In this document: positions 23,875-28,442 of the stretch, in pieces | Position numbering within the stretch: position 1 is the stretch's first letter | Layout of the letters: each line of letters starts with the position of its first letter | Origin: a virus | Lineage: Duplodnaviria > Heunggongvirae > Uroviricota > Caudoviricetes | DNA length: 45,585 bases | Virus record (IMG/VR): IMGVR_UViG_648276647_000019 | Span: 1-45,585 of that record | Reading direction: 5' to 3' (one strand) | Made by a program: the position numbers and the translations under genes | The notes under the pieces: model-generated | What the model saw: only the letters and a program-made list of their open reading frames with translations | Database searches by the model: none | Told to the model about the DNA's origin: nothing

Positions 23875-25463
23875 AACGCGCGCCAGTATTGATTGACGTG
23901 AACGGCAACCCCCTTCGCGGGAGTATGAGCTATACAGGTGGCGGGACTGGTTTTGGCGGGCAGATGATCGACTGGATTCCACCGGTACAAAGTGTGGATG
24001 CAGCGCTGTTACCGTCACTTCGTCTGGGTAATGCACGCGCGGATGACCTGGTGCGCAATAACGGGATTGCGGCTAATGCAGTGTCCCTGCATAAGGATCA
24101 TATCGTCGGACACATGTTCCTGATCAGCTATCGCCCCGACTGGCGCTGGCTGGGGATGCGTGAAACGGCAGCGAAAAGTTTTATAGATGAGGTTGAAGCG
24201 GCCTGGTCGGAATATGCAGAAGGGATGTTTGGCGAGATCGACGTGGAAGGTAAACGCACCTTTACCGAATTTATTCGTGAAGGTGTGGGCGTTCATGCTT
24301 TTAACGGTGAAATTTTTGTGCAGCCGGTCTGGGAGGTGGAGACCACACAACTGTTTCGTACGCGCTTTAAAGCGGTAAGTCCGAAGCGGGTGGACACGCC
24401 GGGACATGCCACCGGGAATCGCTTTCTGCGTGCGGGGGTGGAAACTGACCGCAATGGACGGGCGCTGGCTTATCATATCTGTGAAGATGACTGGCCGTCA
24501 TCAGGTACTGGTGGCTGGGTGCGGGTGCCCGGAGAACTGCCCACGGGGCGTCCGGGGATGCTGCATATTTTTGAACCTGTGGAGGACGGACAGACCCGTG
24601 GAGCCAATCAGTTTTACAGCGTCATGGAACGGCTGAAGATGCTGGATTCCCTGCAGGCCACGCAGCTTCAGTCGGCCATCGTGAAGGCGATGTATGCAGC
24701 CACAATCGAAAGCGAACTGGATACCGATAAGGCGTTTGAGTATATCGCTGGTGCGCCGGAGGAGCAGAAGGATAATCCATTGATTTATATGCTGATGAAG
24801 TATTCGCGCTGGTATGACACGAATAACGTGACGCTGGGTGGCGTCAAAATTCCGCACCTTTTCCCCGGTGATGCGCTGAACCTGCAGACTGCGCAGGATT
24901 CAGACAATGGATTTTCGGCGCTTGAACAGGCGCTGCTGCGGTATATCGCCGCCGGTCTTGGCGTTTCCTACGAACAGTTGTCCCGTGATTACTCGAAGGT
25001 CAGTTATTCAAGTGCCCGCGCATCCGCCAATGAGTCGTGGCGCTATTTTATGGGGCGGCGAAAATTTATTGCGGCCCGGCTGGCCACGCAGATGTTTTCC
25101 TGCTGGCTGGAAGAGGCACTTCTTCGGGGGATTATTCGTCCGCCACGGGCGCGTTTTGATTTTTATCAGGCGCGATCAGCCTGGTCACGGGCAGAGTGGA
25201 TTGGTGCCGGAAGAATGGCCATTGACGGGCTCAAGGAGGTTCAGGAATCAGTGATGCGCATTGAGGCCGGACTGAGCACGTATGAGAAAGAGCTGGCGCT
25301 GATGGGCGAGGATTATCAGGACATTTTCCGCCAGCAGGTCAGGGAATCTGCAGAGCGGCAAAAAGCCGGACTCTCACGTCCGGTGTGGATAGCGCAGGCG
25401 TATCAGCAGCAGATAGCGGAGAGTCGCAGGCCGGAAGAGGAGACAACACCACGTGAGACGTAA
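23871..25463 (+). CDS. B: Portal protein B
   Basis: Strong similarity to lambda gpB (GNARADDLVRNNG, FEPVEDGQTRGAN, LLRYIAAGLGVSYEQLSR); GTG start overlapping the W stop. Confidence 0.95.
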   Translation: MKRAPVLIDVNGNPLRGSMSYTGGGTGFGGQMIDWIPPVQSVDAALLPSLRLGNARADDLVRNNGIAANAVSLHKDHIVGHMFLISYRPDWRWLGMRETAAKSFIDEVEAAWSEYAEGMFGEIDVEGKRTFTEFIREGVGVHAFNGEIFVQPVWEVETTQLFRTRFKAVSPKRVDTPGHATGNRFLRAGVETDRNGRALAYHICEDDWPSSGTGGWVRVPGELPTGRPGMLHIFEPVEDGQTRGANQFYSVMERLKMLDSLQATQLQSAIVKAMYAATIESELDTDKAFEYIAGAPEEQKDNPLIYMLMKYSRWYDTNNVTLGGVKIPHLFPGDALNLQTAQDSDNGFSALEQALLRYIAAGLGVSYEQLSRDYSKVSYSSARASANESWRYFMGRRKFIAARLATQMFSCWLEEALLRGIIRPPRARFDFYQARSAWSRAEWIGAGRMAIDGLKEVQESVMRIEAGLSTYEKELALMGEDYQDIFRQQVRESAERQKAGLSRPVWIAQAYQQQIAESRRPEEETTPRET

Positions 25464-26958
25464 TCTTTCACACATTATTGCCGCAGCATTCAATGAACCG
25501 CTGCTTCTGGAGCCCGCCTATGCGCGGGTTTTCTTTTGCGCGCTCGGGCGCGAGATGGGGGCAGCAAGTCTTTCGGTACCACAGCAGCAGGTACAGCTTG
25601 ATGCTCCCGGAATGCTGGCTGAAACGGACGAGTACATGGCCGGAGGTAAACGACCGGCCCGTGTTTACAGGGTGGTGAACGGTATTGCTGTACTGCCGGT
25701 GACAGGCACGCTGGTACACCGGCTGGGGGGAATGCGACCGTTTTCCGGAATGACAGGCTATGACGGCATTGTTACCTGTCTTCAGCAGGCAATGGCAGAC
25801 ACTTCGGTCCGGGGAGTACTGCTGGACATTGACAGCCCCGGCGGGCAGGCTGCCGGCGCGTTTGACTGCGCCGACATGATTTATCGCCTCCGGGAACAAA
25901 AGCCTGTCTGGGCGCTGTGTAATGACATGGCCTGTTCTGCCGCCATGTTACTGGCGGCGGCCTGTTCGCGCCGACTGATCACGCAGACGGCAAAAACGGG
26001 GTCGATTGGTGTGATGATGGCGCATACCAGTTACGAGAAACAACTGGCACAGGACGGAGTGGATATCACGCTGATTTACTCCGGGCAGCGCAAGGTTGAC
26101 GGTAACAGCATTCAGGCATTGCCGGCAGGTGTGCGGGCGGATTTTCAGCAACGTATTGATGAAGCCCGCCGGATGTTTGCTGAAAAAGTGGCGATATATA
26201 CCGGTTTATCTGTGGATGCAGTTATGGAGACAGAGGCCGCCGTTTTTGACGGTCAGTCCGGTATTGAGGCCGGGCTGGCGGATGAATTAATTAATGCGTC
26301 GGATGCTATTGACGTGATGGCAGCGGCGCTGAATACACACAATACAGGAGGCATTATGCCGCAATTAACTGCAACGGAAGCTGCCGCGCAGGAGAACCAG
26401 CGAGTGATGGGGATCCTGACGTGTCAGGAAGCGAAAGGACGTGAACAGCTTGCCACGATGCTGGCAGGGCAACAGGGCATGAGCGTTGAACAGGCCCGGG
26501 CGATTTTGTCCGTGGCGGTAGCACAGCAACCTGTTGCATCCGCGCAGAGTGAAGCCGATCGCATTATGGCGTGCGAAGAAGCGAACGGTCGTGAACAACT
26601 GGCTGCAACGCTGGCGGCGATGCCGGATATGACAGTGGAAAAAGCCCGCCCGATCCTGGCTGCTTCACCGCAGGCGGATGCCGGACCATCACTCCGTGAT
26701 CAAATCATGGCTCTGGATGAGGCGAAAGGGGCTGAGGCGCAGGCTGAAAAACTGGCGGCCTGCCCGGGAATGACTGTGGAGAACGCCCGGGCTGTACTGG
26801 CTGCGGGATCAGGTAAAGCAGAACCGGTCTCTGCATCCACAACCGCCCTGTTTGAACGTTTCATGGCGAACCATTCACCGGCAGCGGTGCAGGGCGGCGT
26901 GTCACAGACGTCAGCAGACGGTGATGCGGACGTGAAAATGCTCATGACCATGCCATAA
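25453..26958 (+). CDS. C: Prohead protease/scaffold protein C (S49 family; Nu3-like scaffold in C-terminal part)
   Basis: Similarity to lambda gpC (AFNEPLLLEPAYARVFFCAL, GSIGVMMAH); three tandem ~40-aa repeats in the C-terminal part. Confidence 0.9.
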   Translation: MRRNLSHIIAAAFNEPLLLEPAYARVFFCALGREMGAASLSVPQQQVQLDAPGMLAETDEYMAGGKRPARVYRVVNGIAVLPVTGTLVHRLGGMRPFSGMTGYDGIVTCLQQAMADTSVRGVLLDIDSPGGQAAGAFDCADMIYRLREQKPVWALCNDMACSAAMLLAAACSRRLITQTAKTGSIGVMMAHTSYEKQLAQDGVDITLIYSGQRKVDGNSIQALPAGVRADFQQRIDEARRMFAEKVAIYTGLSVDAVMETEAAVFDGQSGIEAGLADELINASDAIDVMAAALNTHNTGGIMPQLTATEAAAQENQRVMGILTCQEAKGREQLATMLAGQQGMSVEQARAILSVAVAQQPVASAQSEADRIMACEEANGREQLAATLAAMPDMTVEKARPILAASPQADAGPSLRDQIMALDEAKGAEAQAEKLAACPGMTVENARAVLAAGSGKAEPVSASTTALFERFMANHSPAAVQGGVSQTSADGDADVKMLMTMP

Positions 26959-26994
26959 AGTCACTGCAGATTATCAATACGAGGTTTTAACAAT

Positions 26995-27333
26995 ATGGTG
27001 ACGAAAACCATCACTGAACAGCGTACGGAAGTATGTATTTTTGCCGGTAATGATCCGGCTCATACCGCCACAGGCAGCAGCGGGATTTCCTCGCCAACAC
27101 CGGCACTGACGCCCCTGATGCTGGATGAAGCCACCGGGAAACTGGTGGTCTGGGACGGACAGAAAGCCGGTACCGCCGTGGGGGTTCTTGCCCTGGAGCT
27201 GACTGGCGCTGAACCCGGCCTGACTTACTACAAAACCGGCACTTTTGCTACTGAAGCGCTGAAATGGCCTGCTTCCGTGGATGAGGTAAAAAAGGCGAAT
27301 GCATTTGCCGGTAGTGCCATCAGCCATGTGTAA
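26995..27333 (+). CDS. D: Head decoration protein D
   Basis: Similarity to lambda gpD (DPAHTATG..., YKTGTF, FAGSAIS); ATG after GAGG. Confidence 0.9.
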   Translation: MVTKTITEQRTEVCIFAGNDPAHTATGSSGISSPTPALTPLMLDEATGKLVVWDGQKAGTAVGVLALELTGAEPGLTYYKTGTFATEALKWPASVDEVKKANAFAGSAISHV

Positions 27334-27359
27334 GAGCCCCCCTTCATCCCACCTTCACA

Positions 27360-27386
27360 GGGCCGCATGCGCGGCCCTTGTTTTTT
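27360..27386 (+). terminator. Intrinsic terminator/attenuator between D and E
   Basis: GGGCCGC-AUGC-GCGGCCC followed by UUGUUUUUU. Confidence 0.5.
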
Positions 27387-27413
27387 CCGTATTCATTTAA
27401 GGAACGAATAATT

Positions 27414-28442
27414 ATGGGCTTATTTACAACCCGCCAGTTGCTTGGTTACACCGAGCAGAAAGTGAAATTTCGTGCGTTATTTCTGGAACTGTTTTTTCGC
27501 CGCACGATCAACTTCCATACCGAAGAAGTGATGCTGGACAAAATTACCGGCAAAACACCGGTTGCGGCGTATGTTTCTCCGGTCGTGGAAGGGAAAGTGT
27601 TGCGTAACCGTGGTGGTGAAACGCGTGTCCTGCGTCCCGGTTATGTGAAGCCGAAACATGAGGTGAACTATCAGCAGGCGGTGGAACGTCTGCCCGGAGA
27701 AGATCCTGCACAGCTGAACGACCCGGCTTATCGTCGTCTGCGTATCATCACCGATAATCTGAAGCAGGAAGAGCAGGCCATTGTCCAGGTGGAAGAGATG
27801 CAGGCGGTGAATGCCGTTCTGTATGGTAAGTACACCATGGCCGGTGAACAGTTTGAAACGGTGGAAGTGGACTTTGGTCGTTCTGCCGCGAATAACATCA
27901 CGCAGGGTAGCGGTAAGGAGTGGTCAAAACAGAACACGGAGACGTTCGACCCGACGCATGATATTGACCTCTACTGTGATCAGGCCAGCGGTATGGTGAA
28001 TATTGCCATTATGGACGGTACGGTATGGCGTCTGCTGAATGGTTTTAAGCTGTTCCGCGAAAAACTGGATACCCGCCGGGGCTCAAATTCGCAACTGGAA
28101 ACGGCAGCGAAAGACCTGGGGGCTGTGGTTTCCTTTAAAGGGTATTACGGCGATCTGGCGATAGTGGTGGCAAAAACGTCTTATGTGGCGGCTGATGGTA
28201 CCGAAACCCGCTACCTGCCTGAGGGCACGCTGGTGCTGGGGAATACGGCGGCTGATGGGATCCGTTGCTATGGGGCCATTCAGGATGCCGGAGCGCTGAA
28301 CGAGGGGATCGTGTCGTCGGCCCGCTATCCGAAACACTGGCTGACGGTGGGCGACCCGGCCCGTGAATTCACCATGACGCAGTCCTCGCCGTTGATGGTG
28401 TTACCGGATCCGGATGAGTTTGTGGTGGTGCAGGTTAAATAA
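27414..28442 (+). CDS. E: Major capsid protein E
   Basis: Strong similarity to lambda gpE (YVKPKHEVN, EEMQAVNAVLYGKYTM, TGDPAREFTM); ATG 27414 after AAGGAA. Confidence 0.95.
   Translation: MGLFTTRQLLGYTEQKVKFRALFLELFFRRTINFHTEEVMLDKITGKTPVAAYVSPVVEGKVLRNRGGETRVLRPGYVKPKHEVNYQQAVERLPGEDPAQLNDPAYRRLRIITDNLKQEEQAIVQVEEMQAVNAVLYGKYTMAGEQFETVEVDFGRSAANNITQGSGKEWSKQNTETFDPTHDIDLYCDQASGMVNIAIMDGTVWRLLNGFKLFREKLDTRRGSNSQLETAAKDLGAVVSFKGYYGDLAIVVAKTSYVAADGTETRYLPEGTLVLGNTAADGIRCYGAIQDAGALNEGIVSSARYPKHWLTVGDPAREFTMTQSSPLMVLPDPDEFVVVQVK

Follow-up and report, generated by a model that had tools for sequence, protein, structure and literature searches.

Three tandem units in the scaffold part of a lambda gpC-type prohead protease and their correspondence to the Tri boxes of phage 21

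The stretch of DNA analysed here (the window) comprises 45,585 nucleotides (nt) of IMG/VR virus record IMGVR_UViG_648276647_000019 (Caudoviricetes). Its gene at 25453-26958 encodes a homologue of the lambda prohead protease gpC, and the C-terminal third of this protein carries three tandem units of about 40 amino acids (aa). It is near certain that these units are the Tri1, Tri and Tri3 boxes of phage 21 and that the feature is already known. By structure prediction, the unit is a small three-helix domain. A multivalent scaffold module that binds capsid or portal is considered the probable overall reading. The gene, the units and the adjoining tail are located as follows.

25453-26958, + strand: gpC / phage 21 gp5 homologue, S49 prohead protease with C-terminal scaffold region (open reading frame of 501 aa with GTG start).

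26392-26517, + strand: repeat unit 1, aa 314-355, corresponding to the Tri1 box (hidden Markov model (HMM), independent E-value 1.6e-28).

26542-26667, + strand: repeat unit 2, aa 364-405, corresponding to the Tri box, with shortened first helix (HMM, independent E-value 2.9e-28).

26683-26808, + strand: repeat unit 3, aa 411-452, corresponding to the Tri3 box, with shortened first helix (HMM, independent E-value 2.2e-27).

26809-26955, + strand: C-terminal tail of about 49 aa after the last unit, with a tail found in every homologue scanned.

Unit pairs gave Smith-Waterman scores of 76-98 versus 25 ± 5 (maximum 53) for 2000 composition-preserving shuffles (z = 10-15). Together with the three HMM matches, these scores bear out the first-pass annotation, which had described three related tandem segments of about 40 aa in the C-terminal third of gpC. 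Its placement of the repeats in the scaffold part was also correct, since all three lie within the Nu3-type region. Protein identity between units was 40-55%. The unit consensus is ERIAAILGSEEAKGREALAQHLAFETDMSVEQAKAILAAA, with the pattern ER.RI..IL...EAKGRE.LA..LA..T.MS.E.A..IL.AAP. Three strong copies were found with the unit HMM in the window protein, in phage 21 gp5 and in Gifsy-1, and one in lambda gpC.

At the DNA level, units were 48-60% identical to each other, with 31-40% identity at third codon positions. Tandem Repeats Finder, run on 25000-27500, returned no array in the repeat region, and a search of the region for DNA direct repeats found nothing beyond short matches of 13-24 nt. 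The triplication is a protein-level repeat and not a DNA repeat. The low identity of DNA and third positions and the lack of an array therefore point to an old duplication that was maintained at the protein level.

These data also bear on a trivial origin of the pattern, namely that the similarity arises by chance or from the composition of a low-complexity tail rich in Ala and Glu, or that it reflects an element of the DNA itself, be it a repeat or regulatory sites. The scaffold region is indeed rich in A, E, Q and L, record OL657228 (phage 21) annotates two 'CII binding sites' inside it, and the CII motif TTGYNNNNNNTTGY matches the window at 26361-26374 and 26595-26608 (both minus strand). 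This explanation was rejected as having next to no chance of being right, given that the shuffles peaked well below the observed scores, that the unit profile matched about 100 diverse proteins, and that the DNA is poorly conserved between units, with randomised third positions and no tandem array. The window contains 7 occurrences of the CII motif versus 9.9 expected by chance, and the two matches are probably meaningless as CII sites.

In M81255, the record of the phage 21 head operon (which we take to be that of Smith & Feiss, Gene 1993), three repeat_region features in gene 6 are named "Tri1 box", "Tri box" and "Tri3 box". Each carries the note "function unknown; putative". The boxes lie at gp5 residues 324-358, 371-407 and 418-455 and are translated as QEAKGREQLATMLAGQQGMSVEQARAIL..., IMVCEEANGREQLAATLAAMPEMTVEKARPIL... 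and IMALDEAKGAEAQAEQLAACPGMTVESARAVL..., respectively. They cover the segments QEAKGREQ..., IM.CEEANGREQ... and IMALDEAKGAEA..., to which the window aligns free of gaps. Over the whole protein, 451 of 501 residues are identical to phage 21 gp5 (90%), without insertions or deletions and colinear across the Tri boxes. Both proteins are 501 aa long and share the internal ribosome-binding site and ATG for a 200-aa scaffold, the box positions, the portal gene upstream and the shp/D-like and gpE-like genes downstream. They differ by point substitutions only, at 50 of 501 residues, of which few lie within units. The triple arrangement, offered as a possible novelty in the first pass, had thus already been annotated. 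Literature searches on the phage 21 Tri boxes and on the structural role of Nu3 retrieved no paper on the boxes from the library searched.

By megablast, the whole gene was 89% identical at the nucleotide level to coliphage 21 and to the isolated lambdoid phages ev017, 4A7, 4C10, 1W, 3W, D2 and the PhiR series. Over the gene, the best matches in E. coli reached only about 90% identity. This identity was uneven (about 90% over the whole gene vs 93-94% in the scaffold part; 25453-26300 compared with 26300-26958), and the scaffold part was 95% identical at the aa level to E. albertii. No exact 52-nt match to the window was present in the collection of one genome per species. The window belongs to a lambdoid prophage other than phage 21 and is a mosaic relative of it.

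For the distribution of the unit, its profile was iterated over the best 149 protease representatives obtained when 1.84 billion representatives of clusters at 50% identity were searched. The unit was found in 98 of them, in 97 as a single copy and in one (P0096, 57% identical to the window protein) in triplicate. A scan of one genome per species yielded 24 loci. Three units were present in five of these (E. coli, Shigella flexneri, E. albertii, Trabulsiella guamensis and Providencia alcalifaciens) and one unit in the other 19, including Vibrio, Rhizobium, Paracoccus, Caulobacter, Desulfarculus and Leptospira. Isolated 21-type phages with records covering the whole scaffold had three units without exception (20 of 20), and no copy-number variant was seen among them. 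Among 5426 complete E. coli genomes, 1870 contained a match to the scaffold segment, with 90-95% identity and hardly ever a gap, and the matching places numbered 2922.

Lambda-like phages, phi80 and HK225 carry a single unit, and lambda gpC (NC_001416) contains exactly one at aa 357-398. Lambda C/Nu3 had been described as less repetitive in the first-pass annotation, which is accurate. The triplication is not universal in this protein family, since only one unit is present in lambda, phi80 and HK225 and in 97 of the 98 representatives that carry it. The three-unit form is lineage-specific and occurs only in the enterobacterial phage 21/Gifsy-1 clade, and a single copy is the state in lambda and almost every other gpE-type capsid system.

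Lambda gpC/Nu3 shares with the window protein the S49 protease with nested scaffold, the AGGAGG-N4-ATG start and a homologous C-terminal tail. It differs in having one unit instead of three, a gpC of 439 aa (501 aa here) and only about 54% identity in the protease part. In lambda, a long low-complexity linker of about 47 aa (Met309 to aa 357) precedes the unit, whereas about 12 aa precede unit 1 in the window. Gifsy-1 STM2605 and the related prophage proteases of Salmonella, Trabulsiella and Providencia have three units in the same order, which cluster position by position with those of the window. They are about 55-57% identical in the scaffold part, with diverged linkers and tail. Tail length was 40-68 aa in the 24 genome loci, and in the 97 single-unit representatives it had a median of 54 aa (range 41-184, 5th-95th percentile 42-67).

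In a neighbour-joining tree of the units, first units grouped together and adjoined the single units of lambda-like proteins, and second and third units formed a separate group. Units clustered by position even across proteins only 57% identical. From this grouping, the triplication is older than the split between the lineages of phage 21, Gifsy-1 and P0096. Unit 1 is the orthologue of the single lambda unit, and units 2 and 3 are derived copies. Units 2 and 3 are without the N-terminal part of helix 1, including an Arg that is invariant in the family. Compared with three-unit orthologues of 55-60% overall identity, the units were 53-78% identical, the linkers 13-55% and the tail 12-31%. All three units are under purifying selection.

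Structures were predicted with AlphaFold2. The model of the whole 200-aa Nu3 was of low confidence (predicted local distance difference test (pLDDT) 58), as is expected of a flexible scaffold. For unit 1 and its flanking residues (aa 308-366), the model built on an alignment of 75 diverse units had a pLDDT of 89.8 and a predicted template modelling score of 0.71, with helices at aa 309-323, 331-338 and 345-354. In the whole-Nu3 model, helices were predicted for unit 2 at Nu3 residues 66-71, 80-87 and 94-103 (pLDDT approximately 67-75) and for unit 3 at Nu3 residues 113-118, 127-134 and 141-152. The models describe the unit as a three-helix mini-domain of about 40 residues, which would be the conserved structured core of Nu3-type scaffolds. 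Foldseek searches against PDB with the whole-Nu3 model and the unit model (pLDDT 90) returned nothing below E = 6. For the scaffold part, no Pfam or NCBIfam model was found, and comparison with PDB sequences gave a single chance match (E 0.5).

Among known systems, the scaffolds of the P22/phi29 type also carry a small helical module close to the C-terminus, in a chain that is otherwise extended or disordered. Their C-terminal coat-binding domain is a helix-loop-helix (PMC3185693). The Tri unit differs in that three helices are predicted instead of two, in its distance of about 50 aa from the C-terminus and in its fusion to a protease, which P22 lacks. A P22-type two-helix hairpin at the extreme C-terminus was not found in the protein, and the searches gave no match to these scaffolds by sequence or fold. 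Tandem three-helix-bundle binding modules (staphylococcal protein A domains, GA albumin-binding domains and UBA/CUE domains) were counted among the closest systems.

The unit was also found on proteases of another family. In Rhizobiales and Paracoccus loci it is fused to a ClpP-type protease (PF00574) and not to S49. Such fusions were confirmed with Pfam in Pleomorphomonas (L014:2311-3351) and Paracoccus (L015:2074-3309), and a third in Rhizobium (L023:2248-3327) was assigned by sequence. In all six loci scanned with Pfam, a PF03864 gpE-family capsid gene lies downstream of the unit gene. A gpD-like decoration gene was likewise detected downstream in the ClpP-fused Pleomorphomonas locus, and a lambda-type portal is present in 22 of the 24 loci. 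Because the same unit occurs on S49 or ClpP with a gpE-type capsid downstream, it belongs to the capsid-assembly side of the protein rather than to one protease, and it is a module that moves independently of the protease family.

The protein encoded at 25453-26958 is a lambda gpC-type S49 prohead protease with a nested Nu3-type scaffold. Within it, the following further features were located.

25681-26331, + strand: S49 (SppA-like) serine protease domain, approximately aa 77-293 (Pfam and SppA structure alignment).

26346-26351, + strand: Shine-Dalgarno sequence AGGAGG of the nested scaffold frame (local sequence acAGGAGGcattATG).

26356-26958, + strand: nested in-frame scaffold of the Nu3 / phage 21 gp6 type, 200 aa, identical to the gpC C-terminus (AGGAGG-N4-ATG).

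The GTG start of the gene overlaps the end of the portal gene. The product belongs to phrog_53 'head maturation protease' (E 1e-220) and matches Pfam PF01343 on aa 146-293 (E 8.4e-33, above the gathering score). The SppA structures 3rst and 4kwb align with aa 77-289 (E 1e-14). In this alignment, Ser162 faces the MAAS-motif Ser of B. subtilis SppA, and Lys214 faces SppA chain position 144, which is Ala in the crystallised chain. We take these to be the nucleophile and general-base positions, respectively. A Ser/Lys catalytic dyad thus appears to be conserved. Gene order in the window is terminase, W-like, portal, the 25453-26958 gene, D/shp-like decoration and gpE-type major capsid. In close homologues, the neighbours carry the Pfam labels Phage_portal_2 (portal), HDPD (decoration) and Phage_cap_E (capsid), and the portal, shp and capsid proteins of the window were matched by phmmer in related loci. 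The earlier assignment as a gpC homologue is backed by the S49 domain, the SppA match and the order portal, C, D-like, E-like. The major capsid open reading frame listed mechanically at 27378-28442 opens at TTG 27378; homologues of 342 aa fit ATG 27414 (MGLFTT...), so that the listed N-terminus is 12 codons too long.

The nested start (AGGAGG-N4-ATG, 26346-26358) has its ATG at 26356 in frame with gpC. At the equivalent place, phage 21 records annotate a ribosome-binding site and the start of gene 6 or a 'scaffolding protein' (M81255, OL657228), and lambda has the same arrangement at Met309. Both phrog_8399 'head scaffolding protein' and phrog_8940 match the product of 26356-26958 in three stretches each, and the 200-aa scaffold is 93-94% identical (aa) to the scaffold of isolated phages. 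Most likely, the last 200 residues of gpC are also made as a separate scaffold protein; this rests on the sequence and on the precedent of lambda C/Nu3 (PMC8508860, PMC3224144). RefSeq lambda nu3 (NC_001416 5132-5737) begins at Met239, inside the protease domain and without a good Shine-Dalgarno sequence. Starting from Met309 (NC_001416 approximately 5342-5737), Nu3 has 131 aa. Both versions are contained in PHROGs, as phrog_8940 (201 aa) and phrog_8399 (131 aa).

E. coli prophages harbour copy-number variants of the protein, which are listed here with the reference form.

501 aa: three units, reference form.

482 aa: 2.5 units, 19 residues of unit 2 gone.

472 aa: 2.5 units, N-terminal half of unit 2 lost.

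452 aa: two units, unit 2 removed.

451 aa: two units, with a unit 1/2 hybrid.

551 aa (P0245; GCA_900537015.1): four units, internal duplication, doubtful.

Three variants were located at the DNA level (451 aa, L030:6001-7356; 482 aa, L031:6001-7449; 551 aa, L029:6001-7656), each of them in a head-tail operon with complete-looking called genes. The exact 482-aa protein was listed in 3592 blocks of the assembly collection. The endpoints of the deletions are microhomologies of 5-8 nt, which are also present in the window, where they fall in two families of direct repeats.

26433-26606, + strand: 24-nt imperfect direct repeat of units 1 and 2 (starts 26433 and 26583, 150 nt apart, 75% identity; family D1).

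26599-26663, + strand: two exact copies of CTGGCTGC (starts 26599 and 26656, 57 nt apart; direct-repeat family D2).

In the two-unit 451-aa allele, the GAAGCGAA copy of unit 1 is joined to that of unit 2 by a deletion of 150 nt. In the 482-aa allele, an in-frame deletion of 57 nt joins two CTGGC(G/T) copies, the D2 copies being its endpoints. The four-unit 551-aa allele was rejected as evidence for expansion, because both copies of the duplication junction contain N and a possible assembly artefact is indicated. P0244 (657 aa) has a large internal duplication and was set aside. In P0330 (721 aa) and in P0332 and P0334 (577 aa), the gpC frame passes unit 3 (...AVLAAGSG) into unrelated sequence, which is Gly/His-rich in P0332. 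Such frames point to deletions in defective prophages by which the head protease was fused to another gene, possibly a distant tail gene. Taken together, the alleles with 2, 2.5 and possibly four units lend indirect support to the view that copy number may matter or is at least tolerated.

For lambda, interactions of Nu3 with E, B, C and itself have been described, and Nu3 is required for portal incorporation (PMC3224144, PMC10275583); the Nu3-E interaction was found by yeast two-hybrid (PMC3224144). By functional analogy with the helical modules of P22/phi29-type scaffolds, each unit may act as a small, self-contained binding module by which the scaffold contacts the portal and/or the inside of the gpE-type shell. 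With three units on short flexible linkers, each 21-type scaffold chain would be multivalent, and the lambda counterpart would have one unit and a long disordered linker. The few gpC protease molecules might be targeted into the prohead via the same C-terminal contacts, and the scaffold would be degraded by the protease after assembly. The binding role and the multivalency are given roughly an even chance of being correct.

Several observations weigh against a multivalent binding module. Portal and capsid types co-vary in the loci scanned, and gpE and portal are therefore inseparable as partners by co-occurrence. Alleles in which half or all of unit 2 is missing are widespread in apparently intact head operons, and given these alleles, three units may be dispensable. 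A mostly disordered protein would also fit the pLDDT of 58, and in such a protein the length of the linkers could matter instead of valency. The first-pass proposal that repeat number tunes scaffold or capsid assembly is not supported in that form. Lambda with one unit and phage 21 with three both make lambda-type heads from homologous genes.

Alternatively, the extra units might mainly serve as a spacer that replaces the long disordered linker of lambda (scaffold length or volume), with the tail or unit 1 alone binding the capsid. This would be in line with the longer linker of lambda (about 47 aa vs about 12 aa), the tail present after the last unit in all homologues scanned, the common E. 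coli alleles with unit 2 halved or deleted, and the lack of the long first helix and the family-invariant Arg in units 2 and 3. However, these two units are conserved like unit 1 and far above linkers and tail, which a pure spacer would not be, and the tail as the proposed binding part is the least conserved (12-31%). All 20 isolated, plaque-forming 21-type phages moreover keep three complete units. A spacer role is considered unlikely.

A slightly smaller chance still is given to the unit being a module for scaffold self-association, in which case the triplication would strengthen or change scaffold-scaffold networks. Lambda Nu3 self-interacts by yeast two-hybrid, and dimers are mentioned as a personal communication (PMC3224144). 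Small three-helix bundles often pair, and within Nu3 only the unit is well folded. Against this, the unit keeps company with gpE-type capsids despite the change of protease, although both readings predict this, and the confident monomer model suggests an autonomous fold, with which pairing would still be compatible. A multivalent module that binds capsid or portal remains the preferred reading.

The triplication itself adds little, as its record in phage 21 gene 6 dates back about thirty years and it occurs in about one third of complete E. coli genomes. The new points are modest and consist of the domain definition, the link to gpE-type capsids and a natural allelic series. Tentatively, and with more doubt than confidence, these can be combined into the proposal that the Tri unit is an unnamed autonomous scaffold module of gpE-type capsids that is fused to S49 or ClpP proteases and whose copy number is polymorphic (2, 2.5, 3 and perhaps 4) through microhomology-mediated in-frame deletions. 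What value remains lies in a handle on the way in which the gpE shell and the portal are engaged by Nu3 and by the protease with the same C-terminus. The unit is predicted to be the only confidently folded and widely conserved piece of the scaffold, it follows the capsid type and not the protease type, and it offers a compact domain for expression together with a ready-made series of 1, 2, 2.5 and 3 units. If the variant alleles are functional, scaffold valency would be adjustable in a lambda-type head, and the alleles would constitute a natural series for the number of capsid contacts needed per scaffold chain.

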